Positions 16,951-55,904 of a DNA stretch of 64,000 nt are shown piece after piece (positions within the stretch are counted from its first letter, which is position 1; every line of letters starts with the position of its first letter). The notes under the pieces were generated by a model that had not been told where the DNA came from, searched no databases, and worked only from the letters and a program-made list of their open reading frames with translations. Source of the stretch: a virus (lineage: Duplodnaviria; Heunggongvirae; Uroviricota; Caudoviricetes); IMG/VR virus record IMGVR_UViG_3300046786_000604, positions 12,364 through 76,363 of that record, one strand, 5' to 3'. The translations under genes were made by a program, and so were the position numbers.

Positions 16951-16979
16951 TTGACATACCTTCAGCTACCTTGTATAAT
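16951..16979 (+). promoter_or_regulatory. sigma70-type promoter (TTGACA-17-TATAAT) for the plus-strand small-ORF array; divergent partner of 16910..16938
   Basis: TTGACAtaccttcagctaccttgTATAAT, 29 nt upstream of ATG 17008. Confidence 0.6.
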
Positions 16980-17007: not shown

Positions 17008-17313
17008 ATGAAAACAACAATTACAAAACTAGACAGGCGGCATACCGGTTATCAACACTTTAATTATATGGCTGTTCCAAAATGGCAGCAAAACTGGAAT
17101 CATGTTGATTTGACTGATACACATCGATTAATGAGACAATGGTGCTGGGAAACATTTGGTCCAAGTTGTGAATATGATGAATACCGCTCACTTTTTGGTC
17201 ATCGAGATATTAATACCAGATGGTGTTGGTTAGCGAGTGCAGAACGCCGTTCTCCGCGTATTTTAATTCAATCTGAAGAAGATAAAAACTGGTTTGTGTT
17301 GAGGTGGTCATGA
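17008..17313 (+). CDS. WF-LRWS family small protein (paralog 1)
   Basis: MKTTITKL...QWCWETFG...EEDKNWFVLRWS; TGA overlaps the next ATG. Confidence 0.6.
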   Translation: MKTTITKLDRRHTGYQHFNYMAVPKWQQNWNHVDLTDTHRLMRQWCWETFGPSCEYDEYRSLFGHRDINTRWCWLASAERRSPRILIQSEEDKNWFVLRWS

Positions 17314-17591
17314 TTAAAGTCAAGTTGAAAAAATATCACATATCAGAATTCGAACTCTTTACTCCAAAATATTACGAATTATTGACAACTTATAAAGAAA
17401 TGAAGCAATGGTGTCGTGATACTTATGGCAAAGGCTATGACGATGCTACTAGAAAATGGTGTTGGCGAAGTGGAGTAAACTCCGAAGAAGTAGAAAATGA
17501 TGACTATAATACCTATATGATGGTGAAGTATGTGGTATTTTTCTTCACTAGTGAGGAACATGCGAGTTGGTTTTTAATGAGATGGGGTTAA
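17310..17591 (+). CDS. WF-LRWS family small protein
   Basis: KQWCRDTYG...SEEHASWFLMRWG; ATGA overlap at the start. Confidence 0.6.
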   Translation: MIKVKLKKYHISEFELFTPKYYELLTTYKEMKQWCRDTYGKGYDDATRKWCWRSGVNSEEVENDDYNTYMMVKYVVFFFTSEEHASWFLMRWG

Positions 17592-17592
17592 T

Positions 17593-17772
17593 ATGTTATT
17601 TGACGTGTCTGATTTTCCTAAATTTATAAGTTATGCTGAAAAAAATTATCCGCCTTTTACTCATATGACCACTATACTTATAGCTGCCGGGTATAAATCA
17701 TCCCGGTTCGCGGATGCAGATTGGTATATGGATGATATCGAATATACACATTTTGTTTTGAGGTGGTCATGA
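17593..17772 (+). CDS. WF-LRWS family small protein (59 aa, below ORF-track cutoff)
   Basis: MLFDVSDFPKF...DIEYTHFVLRWS; ends ttgaggtggtcaTGA. Confidence 0.5.
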   Translation: MLFDVSDFPKFISYAEKNYPPFTHMTTILIAAGYKSSRFADADWYMDDIEYTHFVLRWS

Positions 17773-17975
17773 GAACTCTCATAATAACCCAAGATTCATT
17801 TCTTGATAACAAATTTTTAGATATGTGGGAAAATGATAATGACCCTAGAAATTGGGCTGATTTCATTAAAAGTTTAGATAATAACATCATGACTGTGGGT
17901 TTTAGAAATCAAACAACTACAATTCAATTTACCAATGAATCACATAAAACTTGGTTCTTAATGAGGTATGCATGA
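17769..17975 (+). CDS. WF-LRWS family small protein
   Basis: ...FTNESHKTWFLMRYA; ATGA overlaps at both ends. Confidence 0.55.
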   Translation: MRTLIITQDSFLDNKFLDMWENDNDPRNWADFIKSLDNNIMTVGFRNQTTTIQFTNESHKTWFLMRYA

Positions 17976-18220
17976 GTCAAAAATTAGGATGGAAAAAGAA
18001 ATACCCGTTTAAAGCTACTATAAAAAGTGATAATGTAGAAGCGTCAGCATGGTTAAGATCACAGTTTGGGCATGATTATTTAACGCTATCGTCCGGTAGA
18101 AGGCTAGTACTCAATAGAAAAGACCGGGTATGGGCGTTTGAGAAATGGGAGTATACTGGTTCTACATATGGGTTTGCCACAGAAGAACATAAAACTTGGT
18201 TTTTAATGAGATGGGGATGA
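17972..18220 (+). CDS. WF-LRWS family small protein
   Basis: MSQKLGW...FATEEHKTWFLMRWG. Confidence 0.55.
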   Translation: MSQKLGWKKKYPFKATIKSDNVEASAWLRSQFGHDYLTLSSGRRLVLNRKDRVWAFEKWEYTGSTYGFATEEHKTWFLMRWG

Positions 18221-18221
18221 T

Positions 18222-18428
18222 ATGAGAATAAAGAAAATGCCATTTGAAAAGAATAGCTTTATTCTAAGTGAAAACAAAGGTGAGCGTTCGGTATCTAAGC
18301 AAGAACAACATAGCCTTGTAGAATGGATGGAACAGAAAAATATGAGATATATCTTAACTGGTAATATCTTAACTTTACCACGAGAAGAAGATCAAACCAT
18401 ATTTATATTACGATGGATGACTGAATAA
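18222..18428 (+). CDS. WF-LRWS family small protein (divergent)
   Basis: ...EEDQTIFILRWMTE. Confidence 0.45.
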   Translation: MRIKKMPFEKNSFILSENKGERSVSKQEQHSLVEWMEQKNMRYILTGNILTLPREEDQTIFILRWMTE

Positions 18429-18438
18429 AAGGACAACA

Positions 18439-18918
18439 ATGGACAAGGAAGACCGTAAAAAGGATCGGGAAGATCTATTAAACACAATAAAAGAAAATGC
18501 AGAAAAGTGGATTAGTGGTGATAAACCAGAACCCGTTGTCACTTCATTTTCATCAGTAATAATGCCAATGATTAGAAAAGTTATGCCACAAATGATAGCA
18601 AGTCAACTAACAGGAGTTCAACCAATGACTGGTCCATCTGGTATGGTTTATAATATGGGTTCTATCTTTGACACAATTTTAACCACTCGTGTTGAACAAG
18701 TAGCAGTTAATGGCGAAGAAATTGATTACTATGCCATTAAAATCCCATATGGATATTTTGATAAGCACGATGTATCAGCTGATGATATTCATCAATGGTG
18801 TATTGACACGTATAGTACAGATATCGATGATAGAAGATGGTATGTGCGTGGTTCGATGACTTATCTATTCAGAACTGAAGAAGATCGCAATTGGTTTTTA
18901 TTAAGGTGGAGTTCATGA
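18439..18918 (+). CDS. WF-LRWS family protein (159 aa)
   Basis: AAGGA RBS; HQWCIDTYS...FRTEEDRNWFLLRWSS. Confidence 0.6.
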   Translation: MDKEDRKKDREDLLNTIKENAEKWISGDKPEPVVTSFSSVIMPMIRKVMPQMIASQLTGVQPMTGPSGMVYNMGSIFDTILTTRVEQVAVNGEEIDYYAIKIPYGYFDKHDVSADDIHQWCIDTYSTDIDDRRWYVRGSMTYLFRTEEDRNWFLLRWSS

Positions 18919-19136
18919 TATTAACAAGTATTCTTAAATTTGAAACAGAAGGTAAACTGATTAATTATTATTCAGTTAGAGTGCCAAACATATCACAACG
19001 AGAAGTAGATAGCTGGTGTTTAAAAACATTTGATCTCTCTGAAGACAAAGATAGATGGTTTACTGATGGATGGTTTGTTTATTATTTCAAATACGAAGCA
19101 GAACGTAATTGGTTTATCTTAAGGTGGGGTTCATGA
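18915..19136 (+). CDS. WF-LRWS family small protein
   Basis: DSWCLKTFD...FKYEAERNWFILRWGS; ATGA overlap. Confidence 0.6.
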   Translation: MILTSILKFETEGKLINYYSVRVPNISQREVDSWCLKTFDLSEDKDRWFTDGWFVYYFKYEAERNWFILRWGS

Positions 19137-19432
19137 TAACCAATTTATGTCAGGAAGTAGTTATGGATTCTGGAATGTTTTACGCACCGTATATTCCAGT
19201 TGGAATAACAGGAATAAAACCTTATTCTTTTATCAGAAAGGTTGACGATGTTAATGAATCATGGTATACTATAAAAATACAGCATCCACCAGCAGTGGAT
19301 TGGATGATAGAGGAATTACCAATCGGTAGTTGGCGGTATGCTACCAATACACCATTAGGTGGATGGGTAGATCTGTCGGTATACGATTTAAGAGAAGATG
19401 CATATAGTTGGTTTACGCTGAGGTGGTCATGA
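19133..19432 (+). CDS. WF-LRWS family small protein
   Basis: ...EDAYSWFTLRWS. Confidence 0.55.
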   Translation: MITNLCQEVVMDSGMFYAPYIPVGITGIKPYSFIRKVDDVNESWYTIKIQHPPAVDWMIEELPIGSWRYATNTPLGGWVDLSVYDLREDAYSWFTLRWS

Positions 19433-19647
19433 AAGTCAAGATCTATAAATTAGATCCGTATGAAAATGCGATTAAGGAAGCAATCGAAGAACACAATCTT
19501 CAAGATATACGAGGATATGATAGAATTATTCGTAAGTTAGGTTTTCCTAGTTGTGAGTTTATTCCAAATATGGGGAAGGCTGCTGATAGTTATTGGGAAA
19601 TGGATGAAATTGAGTTTACTTGGTTTGCATTAAAGTTTAGTAGATAA
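19429..19647 (+). CDS. WF-LRWS family small protein (divergent C-term WFALKFS)
   Basis: ...EIEFTWFALKFSR. Confidence 0.5.
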   Translation: MKVKIYKLDPYENAIKEAIEEHNLQDIRGYDRIIRKLGFPSCEFIPNMGKAADSYWEMDEIEFTWFALKFSR

Positions 19648-19649
19648 TC

Positions 19650-19862
19650 ATGGCATCGATTAATATAACTCACAATCAATGGAACAAACTAGCAGTTTAT
19701 CGTGATGAGTCCGATTCTAGTATTGTGAATATGCGTTCATCACGAGAAATGAAACAATACATCAAAGATACCTATCATGGAAATTATGATCAACTCAGAG
19801 GATTTGGGACCATCACATTTGAGCATGAACATCATCTAACTTGGTTTTTATTAAACATATGA
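19650..19862 (+). CDS. WF-LRWS family small protein (degenerate C-term)
   Basis: ...EHEHHLTWFLLNI. Confidence 0.45.
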   Translation: MASINITHNQWNKLAVYRDESDSSIVNMRSSREMKQYIKDTYHGNYDQLRGFGTITFEHEHHLTWFLLNI

Positions 19863-20128
19863 GATTTGAAGATATAAAACTACGATACACTGTTGTACTC
19901 GACAATTTAGATGACCTAAGAAAACATGCATCTGAGTTGCCACCCGGTATACGACCAGATGATTATGATGCAATCGCTGACATTATGTGCAAATGGTGTG
20001 AACAGCAATTTGGTGAGAAGACAGTAAAATGGGATTATTGGCTAGCTAAAGCTTATGATCCAGCTGAAGATCATTTTAGTTTTGAAGAAGAATATCAACG
20101 AACCTTGTTTGTATTGAGGTGGTCATGA
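19859..20128 (+). CDS. WF-LRWS family small protein
   Basis: CKWCEQQFG...EEEYQRTLFVLRWS. Confidence 0.55.
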   Translation: MRFEDIKLRYTVVLDNLDDLRKHASELPPGIRPDDYDAIADIMCKWCEQQFGEKTVKWDYWLAKAYDPAEDHFSFEEEYQRTLFVLRWS

Positions 20129-20346
20129 GTTTACCTAGAAATGGTACATATGAGTTATTTTGTCATCTTGGGTTAATCCATTGTTTTGATGATCCAGGAT
20201 TTTGTATTCGCGATGTTGCTGAAATACATGAATGGATTAGACAACAGCCTACCGATCTTTGGAGGGGCATGGATGAACCATATGCGTATACTGTATATTA
20301 TTTGCAACCTGAATTGTATATTTGGTTTAAAATGAGATGGATATGA
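20125..20346 (+). CDS. WF-LRWS family small protein
   Basis: ...LQPELYIWFKMRWI. Confidence 0.5.
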   Translation: MSLPRNGTYELFCHLGLIHCFDDPGFCIRDVAEIHEWIRQQPTDLWRGMDEPYAYTVYYLQPELYIWFKMRWI

Positions 20347-20597
20347 AACAAACATTATCAAATGCTGATTTACAGAAATTATGGGCTAATTGGCTATTAA
20401 CTTTACAAGGCCAACATGTCAGTGGCTATGGGCTTAGAATGAGTTACGATACTCAATCTCGTAATTATGGTCCTGCTAGGTGCTTCGAAGATTGGTTATT
20501 TTCACAAGGAGCAATAGTTAAACAAGTTAAAGGTAAACGCCACTTGGAATTCATGACACCAGAACAAGCAACATGGTTTAAACTAAAATGGCTATGA
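20337..20597 (+). CDS. WF-LRWS family small protein
   Basis: ...TPEQATWFKLKWL. Confidence 0.5.
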   Translation: MDMKQTLSNADLQKLWANWLLTLQGQHVSGYGLRMSYDTQSRNYGPARCFEDWLFSQGAIVKQVKGKRHLEFMTPEQATWFKLKWL

Positions 20598-20851
20598 ACA
20601 TTAACGAAGTAGCAGCATCTACTAAAAGATATTCAGATAAACTTGCGGCAGAACGAGCTCGGCGGGATCGAATATATAAGATATTCAAAGAAATTAAAGC
20701 GGAACTCGGTTGTGGAATTACCGGATTTCTAGCGTATGTCCAGAATACATATGGAATTGAACCAGTCAAAAAAGATGGATACATTACTTCAGAATTCATT
20801 ATTATCAATGAGCAAAAATACTTATTGTTTAGGATCAAATACGGCATATGA
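20588..20851 (+). CDS. small protein, degenerate family member
   Basis: ...EQKYLLFRIKYGI; overlapping start and stop. Confidence 0.4.
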   Translation: MAMNINEVAASTKRYSDKLAAERARRDRIYKIFKEIKAELGCGITGFLAYVQNTYGIEPVKKDGYITSEFIIINEQKYLLFRIKYGI

Positions 20852-21051
20852 CTACAATAAATTTAGACAGATTTGAAGATCCATTCGGAGTATTTGTATG
20901 GATGTGTGGAACATGGGGACCACCACAGTTTAACAATGATCGATGGGATTTACGAGAATTACGATATCTTGACTTACAGTATGAGTCAGATTTAACTTTT
21001 TTACTATTAAAATGGAATCTTAAAAAATATGATACATGGAATACAAAGTAA
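20848..21051 (+). CDS. WF-LRWS family small protein (degenerate)
   Basis: ...SDLTFLLLKWNLKKYDTWNTK. Confidence 0.4.
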   Translation: MTTINLDRFEDPFGVFVWMCGTWGPPQFNNDRWDLRELRYLDLQYESDLTFLLLKWNLKKYDTWNTK

Positions 21052-21364
21052 TAGCGCACATATATTGGCTTATTCAAATGGCAGTTCTTCAATAACATCC
21101 GGTTCATTACGAATGCAAGATGGTAGGTTAGAAGCATATGCTGGTTATAGTTGGATACCAGTAGAATGTGAGAATGGGATAGTTGGGTTAACAACACAAG
21201 CTGAACAAGCAATAACGTGGGCAACTCAGAAAATGCTTGAAGAACAAGAAGAACAAGCATTGATTGCAAAATATCCATCATTGGGTAGTGCTAAAGGTCA
21301 ATATGAAATGATCAAGAAAATATGTCAAGCTGAGGAAGCACTTGACACCAGTAAAGGAGTATAA
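21029..21364 (+). CDS. hypothetical protein
   Basis: 111-aa ORF in the array, no family motif. Confidence 0.4.
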   Translation: MIHGIQSNSAHILAYSNGSSSITSGSLRMQDGRLEAYAGYSWIPVECENGIVGLTTQAEQAITWATQKMLEEQEEQALIAKYPSLGSAKGQYEMIKKICQAEEALDTSKGV

Positions 21365-21368
21365 TATA

Positions 21369-21716
21369 ATGGAGTTCATAATTTTAATTGCACTGCAATT
21401 AAAACATTGGTACATAGATTTTGTTAATCAAACCGATGCAGAAGTTGTCAGTAAAGGCCATTATGGGGAATTAACCGGTATACTGCATAGCGCAAAACAT
21501 GGTATTGGAACCGGGGTTGTTTTTCTATTCATTGATCCATATCTAGCTCCAATCATGGTATTATTTGATGGGTATTTACATTACCACATCGATTGGGCTA
21601 AACGTAATTTTGGTAATCAAGATATCCAGAATCCTAAATTTTGGGCACATCTAGGTCTTGATCAGATGGCACATCAGTTATGTTATATCGGGTATGTAGC
21701 AATGGTGGTGTTATGA
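21369..21716 (+). CDS. hypothetical membrane protein
   Basis: MEFIILIALQL... hydrophobic segments; GGAG RBS. Confidence 0.45.
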   Translation: MEFIILIALQLKHWYIDFVNQTDAEVVSKGHYGELTGILHSAKHGIGTGVVFLFIDPYLAPIMVLFDGYLHYHIDWAKRNFGNQDIQNPKFWAHLGLDQMAHQLCYIGYVAMVVL

Positions 21717-22000
21717 TACGGGCTGAAACGTATAACGGTATCACTTGGCATAAAGTTCCAGTTGGAAAGCATTTACCATATAGGTCTATTTTTCACGGCG
21801 CAGATGGGCTAAGTGATGTAATTGATGAAATGACTAAATGGTGCGATGAACAATCGAGCCAATCGATGTATTGTTTAGAGCTGGGTAAGCGTACAATAGA
21901 TCCCAGTACATTCCAGCCACGAATACATGACGGAAGTTTTTGGTTTGAAAGTCCAGAAATGGCAAATTGGTTTAATTTACGGTGGAGTCATTTATGCTAA
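21713..22000 (+). CDS. WF-LRWS family small protein
   Basis: TKWCDEQ...KFWFESPEMANWFNLRWSHLC. Confidence 0.55.
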   Translation: MIRAETYNGITWHKVPVGKHLPYRSIFHGADGLSDVIDEMTKWCDEQSSQSMYCLELGKRTIDPSTFQPRIHDGSFWFESPEMANWFNLRWSHLC

Positions 22001-22257
22001 AATCAGCAATACCTAATGATAACTGGATCTGTGTTCCAGTTAAAGAATATATATACAAACTTAATGAGCCAGACATATGGCAGGATATGATGAGATGGTG
22101 TGATGAACAAGTTCATGATACCCGGTATTCGTGTGATGCTGGAGTTCCTAATATTGACAAAGTTACAATGCTCCCTGTATTTAAGAATTCAAAATTTTGG
22201 TTTGAAAGTCCAGAAATGGCGAATTGGTTTAATTTACGTTGGAGTCATTTATGCTAA
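21994..22257 (+). CDS. WF-LRWS family small protein (recent duplicate of previous)
   Basis: MRWCDEQ...KFWFESPEMANWFNLRWSHLC; last about 65 bp nearly identical to 21930..22000. Confidence 0.55.
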   Translation: MLKSAIPNDNWICVPVKEYIYKLNEPDIWQDMMRWCDEQVHDTRYSCDAGVPNIDKVTMLPVFKNSKFWFESPEMANWFNLRWSHLC

Positions 22258-22565
22258 AATTTAATTTAGAAATACGAAATCCATTTTTCAAAAATAGTGA
22301 TTTCAAGAATTTATGGTTTAAGAGTGGATCATTTAATCCACACAAGCATTGGGAATTACAACTGATGCATTATGATTGGAATTTGTTTGAACTTAACCTC
22401 AACATTAGTTGGAAAGGTGAAGATCATGCAGGGCCAAAGTTAGAGATTGGTATTTTAGGATATCAAGTTGCAGTATCGGTCTATGATAGTAGACATTGGG
22501 ATTATAACACTAGTACATGGGAAGTATATGACAGTAGAGAAGAAAACGAGAATACCGAAGCCTGA
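22251..22565 (+). CDS. hypothetical protein
   Basis: ORF in array; no family motif. Confidence 0.35.
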   Translation: MLKFNLEIRNPFFKNSDFKNLWFKSGSFNPHKHWELQLMHYDWNLFELNLNISWKGEDHAGPKLEIGILGYQVAVSVYDSRHWDYNTSTWEVYDSREENENTEA

Positions 22566-22806
22566 ACCAGAGCATAAAGACATTTTGGGTCGAAAGCTAA
22601 CTGTAGGGGATTTTGTTGCGGTTACTATTTTTAATGATTTAAAGATAGCCAAGGTAATTAAACTTAATCCTAAAATGGTTAAGGTTAAAGTATTGGATGT
22701 TAGAAATAATAATTGGTATAGAGGTGAACATAACCGATATTCCGGAGATATGGTCATCGTAGATGGTCCATATATTTCAATGTATATTATTAAGAACAGT
22801 GCGTAG
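22528..22806 (+). CDS. hypothetical protein
   Basis: MTVEKKTRIPKPEPEH...; start uncertain, overlaps the previous ORF. Confidence 0.35.
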   Translation: MTVEKKTRIPKPEPEHKDILGRKLTVGDFVAVTIFNDLKIAKVIKLNPKMVKVKVLDVRNNNWYRGEHNRYSGDMVIVDGPYISMYIIKNSA

Positions 22807-23059
22807 AAAATTAACTAATTTAGAAAGAATTGTCTCACCAGAAACTGATGAATTAATCAAATGGTTAGAGAAGAATGTAGGTCTACTGATCGATGATAAG
22901 ACCTTATATTATAGACAAGGTGATGGATGGATGATGTACATTAGAGATGAAAGAATAGATAATGTATTTACTGGTAAAAAACTGGTATATGTTCAATTTG
23001 ATGCTAGGAAGATTAAACGAGCACAAATGACATGGTTCAGAATGAGATGGGCAGCATGA
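22763..23059 (+). CDS. WF-LRWS family small protein (start uncertain, possibly GTG 22799)
   Basis: ...RKIKRAQMTWFRMRWAA. Confidence 0.45.
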   Translation: MVHIFQCILLRTVRRKLTNLERIVSPETDELIKWLEKNVGLLIDDKTLYYRQGDGWMMYIRDERIDNVFTGKKLVYVQFDARKIKRAQMTWFRMRWAA

Positions 23060-23385
23060 AACCTATTTCAATTTCAAAAGAAAATTGGCATTTGTTATTA
23101 ACAGAGATGCGTAAGGATTATCCAAGAAGTGTATTAGCCATAAAAGAAAAGACCAAGCGAGTATTGGGATTTACTTCACGCGAACATTCTGTATGGATTG
23201 AAAATAAAAATTATCAAAAGGAATATGAAGAATACGAGCGTGATAAAACCGATCCTGCTGCATTGTGGGTTGGTGAACCATTTAAAGGACATAGCAAAAA
23301 AATAATCCAACTTGATTTTTATGATGAAGCAAAGAGAACATTTTTCTTAATAAAGTATAGTGAGTTTTTAAAATGCGAGATTTAA
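23056..23385 (+). CDS. small protein, divergent family member
   Basis: ...EAKRTFFLIKYSEFLKCEI; ATGA overlap. Confidence 0.45.
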   Translation: MKPISISKENWHLLLTEMRKDYPRSVLAIKEKTKRVLGFTSREHSVWIENKNYQKEYEEYERDKTDPAALWVGEPFKGHSKKIIQLDFYDEAKRTFFLIKYSEFLKCEI

Positions 23386-23519
23386 TACTAGAGCGTATTG
23401 CTACTCACTGGAATGAGTCATTGGAAGACATATTTGACATAACGATCACAGATGTGTATAATATGTCAGACAACGATTTACTTAATATATATAACGCAAT
23501 TTTTGAATTAGGGGTATAA
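23373..23519 (+). CDS. hypothetical small protein (48 aa)
   Basis: MRDLILERIATHW...; contains an internal promoter. Confidence 0.3.
   Translation: MRDLILERIATHWNESLEDIFDITITDVYNMSDNDLLNIYNAIFELGV
23434..23462 (+). promoter_or_regulatory. sigma70-type promoter with extended -10 (TTGACA-17-TGnTATAAT) internal to the array
   Basis: TTGACAtaacgatcacagatgtgTATAAT. Confidence 0.5.
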
Positions 23520-23521
23520 AA

Positions 23522-23740
23522 ATGAAACAAGTGAGTGTAGGAATGTTCAAACTGCCAGGTCTAGCTTTTGATCGTGATGAGATGCCAGATGATTTACGAG
23601 ACGAAATGGTTGAATGGTCTGAAAGTTCTAATTGTGGTATCTTTATGACTGATCGGTTATGGTCTTTTAAGACAGAGGGACATCGTGATTTCTTTTTATT
23701 AAGATGGGCTGACCGAGTACCTAAGAAAGATAAAGAGTGA
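23522..23740 (+). CDS. WF-LRWS family small protein
   Basis: ...KTEGHRDFFLLRWADRVPKKDKE. Confidence 0.5.
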   Translation: MKQVSVGMFKLPGLAFDRDEMPDDLRDEMVEWSESSNCGIFMTDRLWSFKTEGHRDFFLLRWADRVPKKDKE

Positions 23741-23934
23741 AGCGATACTACGTCCAAGATTCCTGTTTAGTGGATAATGGATATTCATGGTATCATATCT
23801 ATTCAATGGATATGGAACTCTGGAGCTGGTTGTGGAAGCAACCAGGTGATTTATGGTCTTCTATAAAAAATAGTCCAGAGTTCCTTATTCGTGAGGATCT
23901 ATATATTTGGCTTAAATTGAGATTTAGTTCATGA
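23737..23934 (+). CDS. WF-LRWS family small protein (GTG start)
   Basis: ...REDLYIWLKLRFSS. Confidence 0.45.
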   Translation: MKRYYVQDSCLVDNGYSWYHIYSMDMELWSWLWKQPGDLWSSIKNSPEFLIREDLYIWLKLRFSS

Positions 23935-24197
23935 CAAAAAGTATTAAATTAACCTTATCTCAATACGAGAAATTAAAAGAATGGCGGGATCATGAAAAGC
24001 CGTCATTAACAATGACTGCCTATATTAAAGAACGGTTTAATGCACAACTGAAGCATAGATACGATTATAGAGTAGCCACGTATTATAAAAGTAAAGGCAT
24101 GTCAGTAGAATATCCATATAGCTATCGTGGATATGAATTCACAGTTATCTTCGATCATCACGACGAGCGTTTTACTTGGTTTATGTTGCATGTCTAA
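23931..24197 (+). CDS. WF-LRWS family small protein (degenerate C-term)
   Basis: ...HHDERFTWFMLHV; ATGA overlap. Confidence 0.45.
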   Translation: MTKSIKLTLSQYEKLKEWRDHEKPSLTMTAYIKERFNAQLKHRYDYRVATYYKSKGMSVEYPYSYRGYEFTVIFDHHDERFTWFMLHV

Positions 24198-24462
24198 AAT
24201 TTTACAATATATAAAATCATTATTTCATAAACCCGACCCGGTATTTGTCGTGTTAAGATATGAGCAGTATTGCTACATCCGAGATAGCTATGGATGTAAG
24301 TCTATCAATGACTTATCTCCTATTATTAAACAGGAGTTTCGTGCAAATGTAAATTTTATTAATTATGATAGGTTAGGACCAAATGTACGTTTTACCTTTC
24401 ACAAACCTGAATATAAAACTTGGTTTTTATTAAAGTGGAATTTAAATGAATATATCAAATAA
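24190..24462 (+). CDS. WF-LRWS family small protein
   Basis: MSKILQYIK...FHKPEYKTWFLLKWNLNEYIK. Confidence 0.5.
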   Translation: MSKILQYIKSLFHKPDPVFVVLRYEQYCYIRDSYGCKSINDLSPIIKQEFRANVNFINYDRLGPNVRFTFHKPEYKTWFLLKWNLNEYIK

Positions 24463-24646
24463 AGAAGCAGTAGTTAATATAACCGGTGATAGGCATACTG
24501 CAGTAGAAATTGCCAACTGGTGTCGAAGTAAAAGTTTAATTCACGATGTTGATTACAAATGGTATATGACTAGTATCAATAACATAGTGTTTGAATTCAG
24601 AGAATTGTCTGATGCAACAGTGGTGAAAGATCAATGGGCCACATAA
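24446..24646 (+). CDS. small protein, partial family motif (ANWC)
   Basis: VEIANWCRSKS...; lacks the C-terminal WF motif. Confidence 0.4.
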   Translation: MNISNKEAVVNITGDRHTAVEIANWCRSKSLIHDVDYKWYMTSINNIVFEFRELSDATVVKDQWAT

Positions 24647-24867
24647 CATTTGATGAAGAACTTGAGGCAATATTTTTGGAAACATCATACAAAATAGTAT
24701 CAAAAAATATTGATAAAAATGGTGAATTATGGTATAACATGCGTATCTACCGTGCTGAACTTCGTAGATGGGTTAAAACACAGAATACAAAATTCTGGTA
24801 TAGAAATGAAACCATTATCGATTATAGCATCAATGAACATTTATTCACTTTATTGGCATTAAAATGA
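24634..24867 (+). CDS. small protein, degenerate family member
   Basis: ...NEHLFTLLALK. Confidence 0.4.
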   Translation: MGHITFDEELEAIFLETSYKIVSKNIDKNGELWYNMRIYRAELRRWVKTQNTKFWYRNETIIDYSINEHLFTLLALK

Positions 24868-25142
24868 CAGATGCAGAATTTGTTAGAAAGTTTGGTATAT
24901 TATCGATGTATTATCAAGAAAAAGAACTTGATTTTTATTATGGGTTCCGGTCAGATACTCGTATAACGATTGAGATGTCAAATGTTGGGGTAGACTTGAT
25001 AAAAAACATGTGTTATCATGAGGATCAGGTGCATGATATATTACGAAAAGAACTTCATGAGAAAGACATGCGTGAGAAATATCCAGCCATACAAACTGCC
25101 TGGGATAATTATCAACTCTTATTAAAAATCGCTAATGACTGA
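24864..25142 (+). CDS. hypothetical protein
   Basis: ATGA-coupled ORF without the motif. Confidence 0.4.
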   Translation: MTDAEFVRKFGILSMYYQEKELDFYYGFRSDTRITIEMSNVGVDLIKNMCYHEDQVHDILRKELHEKDMREKYPAIQTAWDNYQLLLKIAND

Positions 25143-25389
25143 AGTTCATAAACTAATAAACAAATGTGATAAGTTTATGTTAACTTATCATAAAACCAAG
25201 TACCACGAATGGTATAGAATAGAATTAACATTACGACATCGATTCTGGACCGAAGATACCTTGATGCAAGAATATAATGACTTCTTTGGAGAGAGATCGT
25301 TGTCGGCTGGCTGGAACTATATCGATATAGAAGAAGCCAAATCAAAATATACCTGGGCAGTATTAAAATGGAACAACGATGAGACATAG
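25135..25389 (+). CDS. WF-LRWS family small protein (variant)
   Basis: ...AKSKYTWAVLKWNNDET. Confidence 0.45.
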   Translation: MTEVHKLINKCDKFMLTYHKTKYHEWYRIELTLRHRFWTEDTLMQEYNDFFGERSLSAGWNYIDIEEAKSKYTWAVLKWNNDET

Positions 25390-25627
25390 ATTCCAATGGC
25401 AGAAAGATTTATCTAATCTGCAAAAACGCTATCTGGGTGGATTTCCAAATTTAATAAGTGATGATGAGAAAATGATTCAACATGTATTGGATGAATTTAA
25501 AAAATCATATCCAGGTAATTTTTCACTTCGCTGGAAATATGATATTGATTGGGGAGTGATGGTTCTTTATCCCGAGTTTGAACGACCTGAAGAGGGAACA
25601 TTTTGGAAACTGAAATACAGCAACTAA
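25379..25627 (+). CDS. WF-LRWS family small protein (variant)
   Basis: ...EEGTFWKLKYSN. Confidence 0.45.
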   Translation: MRHRFQWQKDLSNLQKRYLGGFPNLISDDEKMIQHVLDEFKKSYPGNFSLRWKYDIDWGVMVLYPEFERPEEGTFWKLKYSN

Positions 25628-25806
25628 ACGAATATCATGGTATTCGACTAAAACAATCAATTAATGAACCACGTAAGCTTACTGAAATATTAACATGGTG
25701 TAGTGTTCAATTTGGTCCATTAAGTAAGAGGTGGTTTTTGAAAGGAAGTTATATTTATTTTAAGAATGAAGAAGATTTTACATGGTATCTATTAAAATGG
25801 GGATAA
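25603..25806 (+). CDS. WF-LRWS family small protein (TTG start?)
   Basis: LTWCSVQFGPLSKRW...FKNEEDFTWYLLKWG. Confidence 0.5.
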   Translation: METEIQQLNEYHGIRLKQSINEPRKLTEILTWCSVQFGPLSKRWFLKGSYIYFKNEEDFTWYLLKWG

Positions 25807-25807
25807 T

Positions 25808-26014
25808 ATGTTTACAGTAGTAGATAAGCATTATAACAGCTTAATGAATGATTACTGGTATCGGATAGATATATCGAATAGTGATTTAAGAAACTGGCTT
25901 GTAAAACAACCATCTAGATTATGGTGTCATATTGAATTTTCCAACTATGGTGATTCATATACCATCAATGAAGAATTATATACATTATTACAACTTACTT
26001 GGGGAGACCAATGA
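25808..26014 (+). CDS. small protein, degenerate family member
   Basis: ...NEELYTLLQLTWGDQ. Confidence 0.4.
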   Translation: MFTVVDKHYNSLMNDYWYRIDISNSDLRNWLVKQPSRLWCHIEFSNYGDSYTINEELYTLLQLTWGDQ

Positions 26015-26364
26015 AACAGCATAAACTTGTCCTTCAAGGACACTTAAACCATTACGGATTTCTATTTGGTGGAGAATTATTACGTTGGATAGATGAAACT
26101 GGATATATAGCTGTGAATTTAGAATTTCCAGGACACGAGTTTGTTACAATTGGGTTGAATCAGGTGGTATTCCATAAAAGCATTGTTTCTGGCTCAATTT
26201 TAACGTTTGATACTGCATTGGTTAAGAAAGGTAATACATCAGCAACATTTAATATAGATGTATATGCGAATACAACACCAGACATACGGTTATTTAGTAC
26301 TGAAATAACGTTTGTATCAATAGATAAAGATGGTAATAAAACACCGATTAGGGAAACAATATGA
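26011..26364 (+). CDS. acyl-CoA thioesterase, hotdog fold (YciA/4HBT-like)
   Basis: LQGHLNHYGFLFGGELLRWIDETGYIAV hotdog thioesterase signature; ATGA overlap. Confidence 0.6.
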   Translation: MKQHKLVLQGHLNHYGFLFGGELLRWIDETGYIAVNLEFPGHEFVTIGLNQVVFHKSIVSGSILTFDTALVKKGNTSATFNIDVYANTTPDIRLFSTEITFVSIDKDGNKTPIRETI

Positions 26365-26630
26365 CATTTATTCAAAAACATTTACACTACTGCTTTTTAA
26401 TGCAAGCATATGGGTTTAAATCAGCTGCTGGATATCCAGTATTAATCGATCATGAAAAATGTACTGCTAGCAAGATTGTTGGCTATGTATGTTTTGATAG
26501 TTATAACATGCCTTTAGAATGGGATCTTAATGGAAAGCCATTAAAACTACCATTACATCAGGGTCTAGGCTTAGTGCCGATTCGGAAAGTTGAAAGCTAT
26601 GAAGTTATACCGGTTGAAGAACGAGTATGA
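26361..26630 (+). CDS. hypothetical protein
   Basis: ATGA-coupled 89-aa ORF. Confidence 0.4.
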   Translation: MTFIQKHLHYCFLMQAYGFKSAAGYPVLIDHEKCTASKIVGYVCFDSYNMPLEWDLNGKPLKLPLHQGLGLVPIRKVESYEVIPVEERV

Positions 26631-26893
26631 TTGATCATGATATAGCATCGATGTATGCTTATTCTATGCCCTCTGTGATTACTAGCCTACCACCAAGTAA
26701 GCCAATCGGTGAAATCTTCATAGGTACATTAGGTGATTTTTGTGTACGTGTTAATTGGCATGAACAAGAAATGCAAGAATGGTGTATTAAAACTTATGGT
26801 AAAGATCATAATCGATGGGTCAATATTGATAGAACATTTGCATTTCATAATGAAGAAGACCGCAACTGGTTTATTTTGAGATGGAGTTCGTAA
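26627..26893 (+). CDS. WF-LRWS family small protein
   Basis: EWCIKTYGKDHNRW...FHNEEDRNWFILRWSS. Confidence 0.6.
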   Translation: MIDHDIASMYAYSMPSVITSLPPSKPIGEIFIGTLGDFCVRVNWHEQEMQEWCIKTYGKDHNRWVNIDRTFAFHNEEDRNWFILRWSS

Positions 26894-27138
26894 TGAATGA
26901 AGAAACATTAAGAAAACAATTCCCACAATTTAAACATTGTGTAGCAGTAAAGAAATCAGACATTGATGATTTGAAAATGATAGTTCGTATATCACGGTAT
27001 TTGCAAGATTATTGCAAAGCCAGGATATTAAGAGAATACAGATCATATTCTGAAAATGGATATCATTATTATTGGTTTATTGAACAAGAACCTGCAACTA
27101 AATTACAGTCATGGAAAGATCACGAGAACATTCAGTAA
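26893..27138 (+). CDS. hypothetical protein
   Basis: MNEETLRKQF...; no motif. Confidence 0.4.
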   Translation: MNEETLRKQFPQFKHCVAVKKSDIDDLKMIVRISRYLQDYCKARILREYRSYSENGYHYYWFIEQEPATKLQSWKDHENIQ

Positions 27139-27317
27139 TAATTAAGTTCAGTTATGCAAGTGAAGTAATGGCCATAATAAGAGAACTTAGAGATAACGGT
27201 TTAGTACAAGGAGACGATTTTGAATTCAAAATTGAACGACATAATGGTTCACCAACAGTCCGGTTATACTTTGATAACCCAGCCAGAGCGACGTTTTATC
27301 GTATCAAGTATGCCTGA
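27111..27317 (+). CDS. small protein, variant family member (start uncertain)
   Basis: ...NPARATFYRIKYA. Confidence 0.4.
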   Translation: MERSREHSVIIKFSYASEVMAIIRELRDNGLVQGDDFEFKIERHNGSPTVRLYFDNPARATFYRIKYA

Positions 27318-27585
27318 AGATAAATTTAAAATATTTGATAATGAAGTTTACGAGTTTAAGCCAGTAAAGACGTTAAAAATTGCTCACTTTACAACTGCGT
27401 GGGTAATAAACAATGTATATGATTGGCTTCAAAAAGAAGATGACGGCCAATGGGTTAATCAACATTGTAAGAACATTTATTTTGAAGCTAGTATTTCTCC
27501 GAAAGATTATATGTTAAATTGTCGGATAGCTGCATATATCAAACCATCCGATAATACCTTCTATCAGCTGAAATTTTCAGCTTGA
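27310..27585 (+). CDS. small protein, variant family member
   Basis: MPEDKFKIF...SDNTFYQLKFSA; stop TGA lies inside the next promoter -35. Confidence 0.4.
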   Translation: MPEDKFKIFDNEVYEFKPVKTLKIAHFTTAWVINNVYDWLQKEDDGQWVNQHCKNIYFEASISPKDYMLNCRIAAYIKPSDNTFYQLKFSA

Positions 27586-27610
27586 CACATATCTCTATAA
27601 TTGCTATAAT
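27583..27610 (+). promoter_or_regulatory. sigma70-type promoter (TTGACA-16-TATAAT) embedded in a 12-bp inverted repeat
   Basis: TTGACAcatatctctataattgcTATAAT; ATCTCTATAATT (27591..27602) and AATTATAGAGAT (27622..27633) form a perfect inverted repeat. Confidence 0.5.
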
Positions 27611-27637
27611 TTAATTTTAATAATTATAGAGATTTCA

Positions 27638-28087
27638 ATGACTACATTCTATAAAAAAGTTGGTAAAAGATACATCCCAGTATCTCAATTTGACAGCGAA
27701 TTATTAAGTGCCTATCCAAAAGGCACACATCTAACTATTTGCATACCAGGTAAATCATCACGTCGATTCAATATCGAACCAGCATTTGCTCCTATGATTG
27801 CTGCTGGCGGATATGCAGAAGAAGCGATTGCCCAAGTAATGATGGAAAAGTTATCATTATCACCACAAAAATACCCATTAACTATTGAACAAAAAAAAGC
27901 ATGGGAAAACTTTAAAGAAGTCATGGGTGAAGATAATTGTAGATTATCTAGTGGTAGTATAATGGAAGCAGTTCGTGCAGGTGTTAATGCCATGGCTGAA
28001 GAAGCCAAAGAGCTATTAGAAAACCCAGCATTACAGAATAGTTATGACAACTTTATTTTATTAAGCAAACTTACAAGAGGCAAATAA
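27638..28087 (+). CDS. hypothetical protein
   Basis: 149-aa ORF after the promoter. Confidence 0.45.
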   Translation: MTTFYKKVGKRYIPVSQFDSELLSAYPKGTHLTICIPGKSSRRFNIEPAFAPMIAAGGYAEEAIAQVMMEKLSLSPQKYPLTIEQKKAWENFKEVMGEDNCRLSSGSIMEAVRAGVNAMAEEAKELLENPALQNSYDNFILLSKLTRGK

Positions 28088-28088
28088 C

Positions 28089-40489: not shown

Positions 40490-42345
<1,856 letters not shown>

Positions 42346-47373: not shown

Positions 47374-47374
47374 A

Positions 47375-50359: not shown

Positions 50360-50655
50360 TATTCTAATCCCAAAATTTTACGTTCTTCTTCAGTTAGTTT
50401 TGCCAACGCTGCTGCTTTTTTGAAATATTCAACTGATTCGTTGAATTCGACATCAGTATCGTATACTACCCAACGTTTGTCAATCTCAACTTTTCTAACA
50501 CGTCTAGGCCAATGGCCGTTGTATTTTGCTTTGAATTTGTTAGCTTCGGAACTAGATGAAAAGTATGCAAGATGTTCATCACCTATGCCACCACCATCTG
50601 GTTGTACAACTTCCCAAGCAGTAAATTTTACAGAATATTCTTTCATTAACTCCAC
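50359..50655 (-). CDS. hypothetical protein
   Basis: 98-aa ORF. Confidence 0.4.
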   Translation of the reverse strand: MELMKEYSVKFTAWEVVQPDGGGIGDEHLAYFSSSSEANKFKAKYNGHWPRRVRKVEIDKRWVVYDTDVEFNESVEYFKKAAALAKLTEEERKILGLE

Positions 50656-50831
50656 CTCAATACAAACCAGGTATATTCTTCTTCACTCAAACTGTGTCTG
50701 GGATAACTATTATAATCATTTTGATAAGTCTTAAACCCTTGTGAAATAAAAGATTCATGCCACCCAATAATATCATCCGTTGCATCAATGAATTTTGGGA
50801 AATCATATGTATCAAACTTTATTCTTTTCAT
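50646..50831 (-). CDS. WF-LRWS family small protein
   Basis: ...LSEEEYTWFVLRWS. Confidence 0.55.
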   Translation of the reverse strand: MKRIKFDTYDFPKFIDATDDIIGWHESFISQGFKTYQNDYNSYPRHSLSEEEYTWFVLRWS

Positions 50832-51070
50832 GACCACCTCAACACAAACCAAGTGTAATAAGCTTCATTTTCAAATACGATTCTATCAAATTCTATCTCT
50901 CTGAGTGATTCATCATCATATAATTCATAGGCTTTAAATTGGGCAAATGCATCTTCCATATTATCAAAATATTCGTCAGCAGATATAGAATCATCCCTCG
51001 ACCCACAACCTCTTGTAAAATTTTCACATACTTCGTCAGGCATATCAGTCCATTTAATAATAAAATTCAT
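50828..51070 (-). CDS. WF-LRWS family small protein
   Basis: ...FENEAYYTWFVLRWS. Confidence 0.55.
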   Translation of the reverse strand: MNFIIKWTDMPDEVCENFTRGCGSRDDSISADEYFDNMEDAFAQFKAYELYDDESLREIEFDRIVFENEAYYTWFVLRWS

Positions 51071-51282
51071 TAACTCCACCTCATTATGAACCAAGTCTTA
51101 TATTCTTCGCCTTCAAATGCAATATGAGTGTGAACGTGTTTAGATACACTTATAATTTTTGGATCTAAACTTTTAATGAAAACAAGCCAATCACTGCTAC
51201 AATTATGGTTACCGCTCTGTTTAAACAACTTAAACAGCTTACGTTCGAGTTCAGATGTATGTTTGATTACAAGTTCATTCAT
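51070..51282 (-). CDS. WF-LRWS family small protein
   Basis: ...FEGEEYKTWFIMRWS. Confidence 0.55.
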   Translation of the reverse strand: MNELVIKHTSELERKLFKLFKQSGNHNCSSDWLVFIKSLDPKIISVSKHVHTHIAFEGEEYKTWFIMRWS

Positions 51283-51354
51283 TTTAATCTATTCCAATCT
51301 TTGGATGATCTTTTAAAGATAAGATACATTTTAAACGCCATTCGGTTCTATCTT

Positions 51355-51384
51355 AGTAAACTTGTACTGTATATTCAATCATTT
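51355..51384 (-). pseudogene. relic 5' fragment of a MORN-variant paralog (MIEYTVQVY-stop) in the leader of 51070..51282
   Basis: Minus strand ATGATTGAATATACAGTACAAGTTTACTAA versus the intact gene start at 62257 ATGATCGAATATACAGTTCAAGTTTACGAA. Confidence 0.45.
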
Positions 51385-51416
51385 TAAATTTTCCTGTGTT
51401 ATGTTAAGATGTGTAC

Positions 51417-51444
51417 ATTATAACAGAATAAAACTACTTGTCAA
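51417..51444 (-). promoter_or_regulatory. sigma70-type promoter (TTGACA-16-TATAAT)
   Basis: Minus strand TTGACAagtagttttattctgtTATAAT. Confidence 0.5.
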
Positions 51445-51456
51445 TTATTTAAATAA

Positions 51457-51657
51457 TCATTGTTTTAGTAAGAACCAAGTGTAATGTGCTTCTGTTTCAA
51501 AAGTCAGCAGATACTCCGAATGCCCCCATACCCTGAAATCCAGTATATCAGGGTACCTAGTAAATACAAAATCAGAGAAAGTACCAATGAACCCAGCTTC
51601 TCGCCATTTACCAAAAAAATTAAATGTGGAAGCTTGGACTGCGATTGTATAAGTCAT
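51457..51657 (-). CDS. WF-LRWS family small protein (WFLLKQ variant)
   Basis: ...FETEAHYTWFLLKQ. Confidence 0.5.
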   Translation of the reverse strand: MTYTIAVQASTFNFFGKWREAGFIGTFSDFVFTRYPDILDFRVWGHSEYLLTFETEAHYTWFLLKQ

Positions 51658-51899
51658 TGTTTTAATAAAAACCAAGTGTAATGCGCTTCAGATTTAAATG
51701 TTAAATTCAAATCAGGGAATAGCATCGAGTCATATTGACTATTTGGTATATTTTCTATACTTTCAAATATATCAGAGTAATTCTCTAATAAAAAATCAGA
51801 ATATGCTGATGCATCAATCCAACCATTTTTAAAATAAACAAGTAATGATGGCCATTTAGAATACGTGGTGGCCCAACTGACAGTTATACTATAACTCAT
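51654..51899 (-). CDS. WF-LRWS family small protein (variant)
   Basis: ...FKSEAHYTWFLLKQ. Confidence 0.5.
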   Translation of the reverse strand: MSYSITVSWATTYSKWPSLLVYFKNGWIDASAYSDFLLENYSDIFESIENIPNSQYDSMLFPDLNLTFKSEAHYTWFLLKQ

Positions 51900-52150
51900 T
51901 GTTGTAATAAAAACCAAGTGTAATGTGCTTCAGATTCAAATGTATATTTAAAAGTTAAATATTCATAGTCATGTTCATCAACTGTTTCAATCTTTATTAT
52001 CTCAGGGAATGTTTCTTTAATCCAGGTAAAAAAATCAGGTGCATCGAGATGGTTTCTGGAACTGATATCTACTATTTCACACCATTTTTTATAACACCAT
52101 GTAAATCTAGAATAAGGTGATGCCCAAGGATCTTCTATTTGAAATGTCAT
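51896..52150 (-). CDS. WF-LRWS family small protein (variant)
   Basis: ...FESEAHYTWFLLQQ. Confidence 0.5.
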   Translation of the reverse strand: MTFQIEDPWASPYSRFTWCYKKWCEIVDISSRNHLDAPDFFTWIKETFPEIIKIETVDEHDYEYLTFKYTFESEAHYTWFLLQQ

Positions 52151-52365
52151 TGTTGTAATAAAAACCAGTGATAATGTGCTTCTGAATTAAAGGTTATGTT
52201 TAGGTACATTCGATCCCCATGGTGATACTCGGCGTGAATGATTTCGTCATGGTGGTGCATTAGCCAATTGGGTAATTTACCTTGGAACTGGAAATCATGG
52301 ACGTACATTCTAGTGGTTGCCCATTTACCAGCTATTCTGCTATGTATTGTTAGTTGGTAAATCAT
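52147..52365 (-). CDS. WF-LRWS family small protein (variant)
   Basis: ...FNSEAHYHWFLLQQ. Confidence 0.5.
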   Translation of the reverse strand: MIYQLTIHSRIAGKWATTRMYVHDFQFQGKLPNWLMHHHDEIIHAEYHHGDRMYLNITFNSEAHYHWFLLQQ

Positions 52366-52565
52366 TATTGTAATAAAAACCAGTGATAATGTGCTTCAGA
52401 TTCAAACGTAAATTCTCTTCCACCAATTATAGTATTAATAGATATGCAACCAGGATAGTGTTTAACGCAATACTCACTATAACTTAAAAAACTATTATTA
52501 ACCCAGTCTTTCCATGATTGCCAAGTATTGAATTGGGCTCGATAAATTTTTACTTTGAAAGACAT
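52365..52565 (-). CDS. WF-LRWS family small protein (variant)
   Basis: ...FESEAHYHWFLLQ. Confidence 0.5.
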   Translation of the reverse strand: MSFKVKIYRAQFNTWQSWKDWVNNSFLSYSEYCVKHYPGCISINTIIGGREFTFESEAHYHWFLLQ

Positions 52566-54775: not shown

Positions 54776-55020
54776 ATGACATCTTCTAACTTAAAATGTT
54801 GAACAAAGTTATTGTAGTCTTGTTCATCTCTAAAATGAAATTTATACACACCAGTTCTACCACGAAATGCTCTAGGGAACCAGTAGTGTGGTGATTCTGG
54901 TTGATGTCTTGGTTCTATATTTTCCTTGCACCATTCAATCATACTTACGTAAACGATTGGCCGTTGCATAGGATCAGTTATCCATTCTTTAAATGGTATA
55001 GTTGCTATGTAAAAACTCAT
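54772..55020 (-). CDS. hypothetical protein
   Basis: 82-aa ORF, ATGA-coupled. Confidence 0.4.
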   Translation of the reverse strand: MSFYIATIPFKEWITDPMQRPIVYVSMIEWCKENIEPRHQPESPHYWFPRAFRGRTGVYKFHFRDEQDYNNFVQHFKLEDVI

Positions 55021-55259
55021 TCTAAGTACTCCGAAAATTTAAGTATAAACCATGTTCGGCTTTCTTCTGAATTAAAGCAAAACGTTCTTACAGTTCCAGC
55101 AGGTGTCCATTCCAAATAATACTTATAGGTACGGAAATTTTTCTTACACCAGACCCGCATTACTGATATTGTCATAATGTCAGCTGAAATAAATTCCAAG
55201 CCATATAAACAATCACGAAAGATAACGAATGAACTGGTATTGATAGTTGTTAATTTCAT
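55017..55259 (-). CDS. WF-LRWS family small protein
   Basis: ...FNSEESRTWFILKFSEYLE. Confidence 0.5.
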   Translation of the reverse strand: MKLTTINTSSFVIFRDCLYGLEFISADIMTISVMRVWCKKNFRTYKYYLEWTPAGTVRTFCFNSEESRTWFILKFSEYLE

Positions 55260-55504
55260 GAGTATTTCAACATAAACCAGGTTGCTTTTGAATCATCAAA
55301 AAATTCTAAATATGATTCTTCGCATTCTTTATCATCCACCTTAACAGCACCTGCTAATTTTAGTTCTTTTTTTATGATGATAGAACGACCTTCTGAAAAT
55401 TTGCCTGGTTCTAATTTTAACCGAGTATCAACATCTTTGATGAAATTCTGCCACCAGCTTGGTTGACTTTCTAAAAATTGATCGTATTCTAAATATAATT
55501 TCAT
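55256..55504 (-). CDS. WF-LRWS family small protein (variant)
   Basis: ...FDDSKATWFMLKYS. Confidence 0.5.
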   Translation of the reverse strand: MKLYLEYDQFLESQPSWWQNFIKDVDTRLKLEPGKFSEGRSIIIKKELKLAGAVKVDDKECEESYLEFFDDSKATWFMLKYS

Positions 55505-55704
55505 GACCACCTCAATATAAACCAAGTCTTATGTTCATCACTCTTAAAGGTAATATGAGTAATGCTATCCACACCCTCAACATTAATGATATTCTCATCA
55601 AGTGATAGAATAAACTGAAACCACGAACTAGTGGTAGAATTAAAAAAATGTTTCGTAATAGTTTTATCTAATGAACTATCAACTTTTAAATATAAAACAC
55701 TCAT
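55501..55704 (-). CDS. WF-LRWS family small protein
   Basis: ...ITFKSDEHKTWFILRWS. Confidence 0.55.
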   Translation of the reverse strand: MSVLYLKVDSSLDKTITKHFFNSTTSSWFQFILSLDENIINVEGVDSITHITFKSDEHKTWFILRWS

Positions 55705-55904
55705 GACCACCTCAAAATAAACCAAGTCTTATGTTCATCACTCTTGAAGGTAATCCGAGTGAAGCCTTTCATGTCCTCAACTTTAATAATATTTGGATCT
55801 AAACTTTTGACAAACGCAACCCATTGTGGATGTTGGTTTGCATTATAAAACAGTTGTGTTATGTTATGGTCTAATGTACCTTCTTTTAAATCTAGAACGC
55901 TCAT
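55701..55904 (-). CDS. WF-LRWS family small protein (tandem duplicate of previous)
   Basis: ...ITFKSDEHKTWFILRWS; same length, about 60% identical to its neighbour. Confidence 0.55.
   Translation of the reverse strand: MSVLDLKEGTLDHNITQLFYNANQHPQWVAFVKSLDPNIIKVEDMKGFTRITFKSDEHKTWFILRWS

Follow-up and report, generated by a model that had tools for sequence, protein, structure and literature searches.

Overlapping gene pairs that carry a Shine-Dalgarno (SD) sequence within the upstream gene were strictly coupled in 13 of 14 pairs tested in E. coli and Haloferax (Huber et al. 2019, PMC6728339). T4-type phages carry shuffling repeats known as PeSLs, each composed of a strong sigma-70-like early promoter and a stem-loop terminator (PMC2839356; Comeau et al. 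2014, PMC4122927), and lineage-specific expansions of small proteins have been described in jumbo phages, one example being the zinc ribbons of Bacillus phage G, with about 35 copies (Iyer et al. 2021, PMC7824862). These systems are compared here with a 64 kb stretch (the window; positions 12,364 to 76,363 of IMG/VR record IMGVR_UViG_3300046786_000604) of a Caudoviricetes genome of roughly 300 kb, in which a 15-mer, TTGAGGTGGTCATGA, recurs between tandem genes of one family of small paralogous proteins. The 15-mer is probably the standard junction of tandem cassettes of small early proteins, kept by selection for its SD sequence and serving also as a crossover point.

About 57 curated paralogous genes of 60–100 codons, arranged in four arrays, make up the family in the window, and their products end in F.sEEhxTWFxLRW(S/G). 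The sense codons TTG, AGG, TGG and TCA of the 15-mer encode L-R-W-S and are followed by the stop TGA; the ATG of the next gene is formed from the A of TCA and the TG of TGA, which gives an ATGA overlap at all nine exact copies, and the end of GAGG lies 5 nucleotides from this ATG. The parts named in the original prediction, namely last codons, stop, GAGGTG 5 nucleotides before the ATG and ATGA overlap, were all recovered. Stop-start overlaps are frequent in the family as a whole: 29 junctions overlap by 4 nucleotides and six by 1 nucleotide (35/57), as against 27/102 non-family junctions (p=2e-5).

The junction feature is real and highly non-random. Nine exact copies were counted in the window (four on the plus and five on the minus strand) and none in 100 shuffles; with up to two mismatches allowed, 12 copies were found against 0.21 expected. 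Of the 15 occurrences of the core GAGGTGG, 13 are at family junctions, and a looser class comprises 18 junctions with an AGG Arg codon 5 or 8 nucleotides before a stop-overlapping ATG. The earlier statements that the element recurs more than 15 times and stands at most junctions apply to this looser class only; the second was too strong, about 10 of the 57 family genes ending in L-R-W-S followed by TGA. The positions given at that time were right within a few bases, 19418–19432 being a CTG variant, and one exact copy (34676–34690, minus strand) has to be added. An IMG/VR scan for the exact 15-mer returned single matches at chance level and is informative only for contigs with several copies: 4–8 copies within a few kb were retrieved from each of several contigs of 239–333 kb, and contig L001 carries 28 exact 15-mers and 54 family genes within about 12 kb.

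Pairing with 16S rRNA was calculated. GAGGUGGUC can form nine base pairs (one of them G.U) with the 16S tail usual in bacteria, GAUCACCUC, which may not be that of the host. The computed duplex of the 15-mer with the standard tail GAUCACCUCCUUA has an energy of -15.8 kcal/mol, equal to that of the consensus SD, and alternatives with a synonymous or another Ser-position codon were calculated at -9.1 (AGA), -12.8 (TTA) and -10.7 kcal/mol (GCA). The tetramers GGAG, AGGA and GAGG are enriched 12–18-fold upstream of the unrelated, non-family genes of the window, and the phage therefore uses a canonical SD.

Codon choice was analysed in relation to the distance of the next start, "near" being defined as an ATG 4–9 nucleotides downstream; the pooled set consisted of the window and contigs L001 and L005, the latter two found by protein similarity. 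Among codons outside the motif, AGG accounts for 5.6 % of the 753 Arg codons of the window, TTG 19 % of Leu and TCA 34 % of Ser codons, and the bias is towards AGA (41 % of Arg) and TTA (50 % of Leu). All 18 AGG codons at the motif Arg in the window lie 5 or 8 nucleotides before the next ATG, and 11 of the 14 non-AGG codons at this position lie at other distances. In the pooled set AGG is used at 64/69 near and 1/15 far positions (Fisher p=5e-11), the sole far case sitting at the end of a locus. The Leu codon preceding the Arg is TTG in 50/53 cases, whereas in the same genes TTA encodes 13/14 of the Leu residues two codons upstream. TCA is found at the Ser position in 52/58 cases, though GCA, GGA and ACA would equally give ATGA. 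Where the next ATG is 10–11 nucleotides away, the SD is a GGAG formed from TGG-AG(T/C) and the Arg codon is back to AGA or CGN. In six distinct orthologues of the gene at 23522–23740 the motif is internal, followed by a tail of 10–18 residues, and its Arg codons are CGT, CGC, CGA, CGA, AGA and AGA, never AGG. Even the amino acid follows the position of the SD: Arg has a near/far ratio of 69/14 and Lys of 6/17 (p=5e-7).

The double constraint proposed in the original prediction is therefore supported at the codon level, TTG, AGG and TCA being fixed against the bias of the window only where the next start is 4–9 nucleotides away, and this codon evidence supports the reading as an SD sequence. 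It provides a clean natural example of dual coding, in which a translation signal shapes synonymous codons, and even the choice between Arg and Lys, at the end of a protein; the same genes and the orthologues with an internal motif serve as internal controls.

Breakpoints between closely related strains lie at the same junction, a point absent from the original prediction: gain, loss and replacement of cassettes all occur there. Between contigs L001 and L002 (97–98 % identical) five indels or replacements were found in the array, with the left boundary at a 15-mer in 5/5; two of the five are clean deletions between two 15-mers. The L001 pairs 11531–11545 plus 11937–11951 and 8602–8616 plus 8820–8834 each correspond to a single 15-mer in L002, which has its upstream flank from one L001 junction and its downstream flank from the other. 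Of the three array indels that separate the window from contig L127 (~99 % identical), two lie at a junction; L127 has one extra cassette at 28649–28663, flanked by a 27-nucleotide repeat ending in the 15-mer, and a second at 34676–34690.

These 15 bases encode the last four residues (L-R-W-S) of the conserved C-terminal helix motif WFxLRW, supply the TGA stop, contain the SD (GAGGUG, 5 nucleotides before the next start) and provide, in an ATGA overlap with that stop, the start codon of the following cistron. In the proposed mechanism, selection for downstream initiation on long polycistronic early mRNAs would fix TTG, AGG and TCA and favour Arg over Lys; initiation would probably be through termination-reinitiation, through direct binding of the 30S subunit, or through a combination of the two. 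The junction is the longest identical stretch between otherwise very divergent cassettes and would therefore also be a crossover point for unequal recombination, by which whole cassettes could be added, removed or swapped with their reading frames intact.

Of the other explanations, concerted evolution survives best and is still unlikely. On this view the junctions would stay identical because cassette ends frequently recombine unequally or undergo gene conversion, the SD-like sequence being incidental; cassette breakpoints in the junction in two independent strain pairs fit this, as does the restriction of DNA similarity among the paralogues to the last 50–60 nucleotides. Conversion tracts should, however, homogenise adjacent synonymous sites as well, and the neighbouring Val and Thr codons vary freely (the x-codon is GTA, GTG, GTT, ATA or TTA, and the Thr codon before the Trp varies likewise). 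Moreover, whether AGG is used varies with how far away the next ATG lies, even across distant genomes, and the fixed bases are exactly those that strengthen pairing with 16S rRNA. A clearly more remote explanation is that the shared junction is the operator or target of a phage translational repressor or RNase that switches off all cassettes together. T4 RegA and RegB act on early ribosome-binding sites, and dozens of early cistrons share an identical 15-nucleotide ribosome-binding site here, nine times in the window and 28 times within 12 kb of L001; conservation is also stricter than SD function requires, as seen in TCA, a preference that extended 16S pairing also explains. Least credible, and already contradicted, is the view that the 15-mer is kept only as the inherited protein end L-R-W-S, with no selection on the RNA: conservation of WFxLRW extends over 658 cluster representatives and includes internal copies of the motif, and the structural model ends in a helix that covers it, but at 11–35 % protein identity the synonymous sites should have drifted to the AGA and TTA levels of the window, whereas AGG and TTG prevail, and only in the SD position.

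Selection for the SD at a standard cassette junction, as preferred here, has to be set against several observations. Any pairing outside CCUCC presupposes the usual bacterial 16S tail, perhaps not that of the host. Several family junctions are without any SD, LKYS-ATGA at 55256 and those of the LLKQ/LLQQ series among them, and the SD is therefore not obligatory. The codon counts ignore shared descent and gene conversion among cassettes; low protein identity and variable adjacent synonymous sites argue against inheritance alone. A conserved RNA hairpin hiding the SD was considered and rejected, twelve aligned junctions having no conserved structure that would block independent initiation (consensus -0.1 kcal/mol), so that independent initiation could dominate over coupling. 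As to the crossover, the array deletion at 29806–30023 is internal to a gene, and the gene for a 443-residue AAA/BCS1-like ATPase (38550–39881, minus strand) is present or absent without any 15-mer. The latter gene is missing from a 95–99 % identical relative (L127 19263–19279) with breakpoints exactly at two ATGA/ATG starts; such a gene-precise indel at a bare ATGA means that selection for intact open reading frames (ORFs) could explain part of the breakpoint pattern.

The conserved C-terminus is primarily a protein feature. It had been proposed that the SD is the reason why the extreme C-terminus is the most conserved part, and that R-W-S is invariant. The conserved block, F.sEEhxTWFxLRW, comprises about 14 residues and far exceeds the SD, and the first proposal is not supported. 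Nor is R-W-S invariant: the motif can be recognised in 55 window members, and in these the Arg position is occupied by Arg in 31, Lys in 16 and other residues in eight. Lys, Gln and tailed variants without an SD retain WFxL(R/K)(W/F/Y), and the orthologues with a tail retain W-F-x-L-R-W; because the motif persists without any SD, constraint at the protein level is indicated, in agreement with the terminal helix that covers the motif in the predicted fold. A second family, whose conserved end HFG[I/V]E contains no SD, leads to the same conclusion. What the SD adds is a constraint on codon choice and on Arg versus Lys, and probably also on where the protein ends.

About eight small genes (46844–50646, minus strand), most of them linked by TAATG or ATGA overlaps, make up the second family; their products end in HFG(I/V)E or a variant of it. 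Examined as a parallel case (46844–50171), this family has C-terminal codons (GGT ATT GAA) that form no SD.

Translational coupling along the arrays, which the original prediction took to be tight, is no more than plausible. Perfect sigma-70 consensus sites were found only at array starts and gaps, with a terminator at the array end and a second predicted terminator of the plus-strand array at 30436; arrays lying between predicted promoters and a terminator fit long polycistronic early transcripts. Like the coupled pairs of Huber et al., the genes are co-directional and overlap by 4 or 1 nucleotides, with a normally spaced SD in the final codons of the preceding gene, and they share an operon, here one predicted from the promoter and terminator scan. 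Unlike in those pairs, one 15-nucleotide solution is reused at dozens of junctions inside a paralogue family, the junction coincides with a conserved protein motif and leaves a measurable codon and Arg/Lys signature, and coupling is a prediction from the sequence, with no conserved occluding structure. The mechanism class (ATGA overlap with intragenic SD) is well known and the translation mechanism is textbook, with nothing new in it; the additions are scale, codon signature and the frame-preserving crossover point.

The junction resembles the T4-type PeSL in that variable regions contain small non-essential early genes bordered by a short conserved repeat, in which the breakpoints of indels and replacements between near-identical phages lie. 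The 15-mer has neither the promoter nor the stem-loop of a PeSL, the only promoter-like match that overlaps it being a weak 9/12, and is therefore not a PeSL; it also differs in lying inside coding sequence (C-terminal codons, stop, SD and start), so that recombination at it would be frame-preserving by construction. In lambdoid phages, conserved linkers at gene boundaries were reportedly proposed as recombination points in the modular theory of Susskind and Botstein. Such linkers, short boundary homologies that reportedly contain translation signals and lie at mosaic joints, resemble the present case; they differ in separating heterologous modules of different phages, whereas the boundaries described here lie in the tandem paralogue array of one genome.

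The further idea that the junction is itself a selected cassette joint, uniting coding end, stop, ribosome-binding site and start, and not merely a tolerated crossover site, is offered tentatively and is rather doubtful. If true, such a joint would let a jumbo-phage clade assemble, expand and reshuffle at least 100 small early genes, in frame and translatable; it would be the coding-sequence counterpart of PeSLs or integron cassette sites and would drive fast turnover of a host-takeover or anti-defence repertoire.

One copy, at 34422–34679, reads through the element as predicted, ending in RWQNKQQSF and overlapping its neighbour by 28 nucleotides; its motif Arg codon is AGA, and the next ATG lies inside AGA-TGG. 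The same out-of-frame ATG within AGA-TGG (CGA in L130 and L132), in frame with the downstream cistron, was observed at 20337, 23032, 26881 and 34449, and at 34449 no other ATG is a plausible start for the following gene. Mis-calling of starts was likewise confirmed, longest-ORF calls yielding MVxIEVVM-type N-termini from TTG or GTG starts. At least one public protein, P0080, carries an upstream-ATG extension, MLYRVCSNGGVMIRAE..., at another junction type, and in the JGI gene calls of contig L001 the ATGA start is mostly used. For the present arrays the ATGA start should be preferred over the longest ORF.

Table 1. Junctions, arrays and predicted transcription signals in the window.
Feature	Coordinates	Strand	Remarks
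Exact 15-mer junction	17299..17313	+	L-R-W-S codons, TGA, SD GAGGTG, next-cistron ATG
Exact 15-mer junction	17758..17772	+	
Junction variant CTGAGGTGGTCATGA	19418..19432	+	1 mismatch; synonymous Leu codon still G-ending
Exact 15-mer junction	20114..20128	+	
Exact 15-mer junction	28649..28663	+	Extra cassette in L127; flanking 27-nt direct repeat includes 15-mer
Exact 15-mer junction	34676..34690	-	Extra cassette in L127
Exact 15-mer junction	50828..50842	-	
Exact 15-mer junction	55501..55515	-	
Exact 15-mer junction	55701..55715	-	
Exact 15-mer junction	55901..55915	-	
Junction variant ATGAGGTATGCATGA	17961..17975	+	M-R-Y-A; AGG retained; ATGA overlap
Junction variant TTAAGGTGGAGTTCATGA	18901..18918	+	L-R-W-S-S; ATG 8 nt after AGG
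Junction variant TTAAGGTGGGGTTCATGA	19119..19136	+	L-R-W-G-S
Junction variant TTGAGGTTTTCATGA	28846..28860	+	L-R-F-S
Junction variant CTGAGGTTTTCATGA	29269..29283	+	L-R-F-S
Junction variant GTGAGGTGGTCATAATG	34238..34254	-	V-R-W-S; TAATG, 1-nt overlap
Junction variant TTGAGGTGGAGTTAATG	50644..50660	-	L-R-W-S with AGT; TAATG overlap
Junction variant ATGAGGTGGAGTTAATG	51068..51084	-	
Main array	17008..30059	+	~40 family cassettes, few unrelated genes between; predicted sigma-70 promoters, terminator at end
Array	34013..34918	-	4 family cassettes including read-through copy
Array	50646..52565	-	8 family cassettes: three end RWS; five end LLKQ/LLQQ/LLQ, motif codons without SD
Array	55017..56113	-	5 family cassettes; three exact 15-mers spaced ~200 nt
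Perfect TTGACA-N17-TATAAT promoter-like site	16951..16979	+	Before first cassette; consensus scan
Further perfect TTGACA-N17-TATAAT sites	21342, 23434, 27582	+	Consensus scan
Intrinsic-terminator-like hairpin and T run	30058..30082	+	After last plus-array cassette; terminator 30058–30075

The paralogues are only 11–35 % identical in protein and are therefore not recent duplicates. Pfam, PHROGs and PADLOC yielded no family-wide profile match, a tblastn search of 50,697 phage records with one family member was negative, and literature searches for a description of the gene family found nothing relevant. A profile search of 1.84 billion cluster representatives returned 658 relatives at E ≤0.001; among the best 150 relatives listed nearly all have 52–163 residues, and most relatives examined terminate at most about three residues after the motif. 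An AlphaFold model of a family protein (predicted local distance difference test, pLDDT, 83) has the order beta-alpha-alpha-beta-beta-alpha, with the motif in the last helix, and its structural neighbours were generic ones only. In common with the zinc ribbons of phage G, a small domain of unknown role has undergone massive expansion within one genome; unlike those, the present family is without a Pfam, PHROG or PADLOC match, and its copy number (~57 in 64 kb; 54 in 12 kb of L001) is higher. The family is very large (at least 658 clusters at 50 % identity, at least 50 copies per 12–64 kb), and high copy number together with cassette turnover between near-identical strains is the pattern expected of arms-race genes, which makes it a reasonable target for functional screens.

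The only library match within the family concerns a Gp23-like N-terminal segment of one member. This gene (18439–18918, plus strand) has an extra N-terminal segment, MPMIRKVMPQMIASQLTGVQPMTGPSG, that matches the N-terminal part of the T4-type major capsid protein Gp23 (PF07068 positions 2–44, E=2e-11; phrog_138), and the same fusion is present in several metagenomic relatives (P0069, P0070, P0089, P0093). Two family domains are fused in one ORF in P0085 (141 residues) and at L002 17477–17923 (148 residues), the fusion junction of the latter, ...AGGTGGTCATGCATGA..., being changed relative to the L001 junction. The top-scoring family-profile match is P0068 (2446 residues), with 12 matched stretches, all to profile positions 12–46; it may be a repeat or low-complexity artefact.

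The window is AT-rich (~35 % G+C) and gene-dense, with three strand blocks. No close relative was found among 50,697 deposited phage genomes, but metagenome contigs of 105–367 kb carry near-identical or related sequence; the source is therefore an uncultivated jumbo phage. Genes for NAD salvage and other auxiliary functions lie on the minus strand at 34884–36257, 59461–60477, 40836–42110 and 43436–44350; the auxiliary products are a nicotinamide phosphoribosyltransferase (NAMPT), an NMN-adenylyltransferase (NMNAT)/Nudix protein, a seryl-tRNA synthetase and an ADP-ribosylglycohydrolase, and an AAA ATPase is also encoded in the window. A 457-residue protein shows 52–61 % identity to phage nicotinamide phosphoribosyltransferases, and its counterpart in L127 has the NAMPT Pfam domains. 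A KVP40-like vibriophage, suspected from the NAMPT and NMNAT genes, MORN repeats and paralogue arrays, was rejected as the source: megablast of 8 kb against 50,697 phage records gave no match, and helicase-like and NAMPT proteins had matches only in distant phages (24–61 % identity).

Sites of the form TTGACA-N17-TATAAT number six at 12/12 and one at 11/12 within 19.5 kb (16951, 21342, 23434 and 27582 on the plus strand; 16938, 33488 and 32481 on the minus strand). The -35 hexamer of the sites at 27582, 33488, 32481 and near 63247 shares bases with the stop codon TGA of the preceding gene (GCTTGACA), another signal overlapping a coding end. Four paralogous repeat proteins with YxNGxLHREDGPA units are encoded at 60543–63200 (minus strand); they share the C-terminal tail EIEQLLGYK(V/I)K(I/V)V, and two of their junctions are ATGA overlaps.
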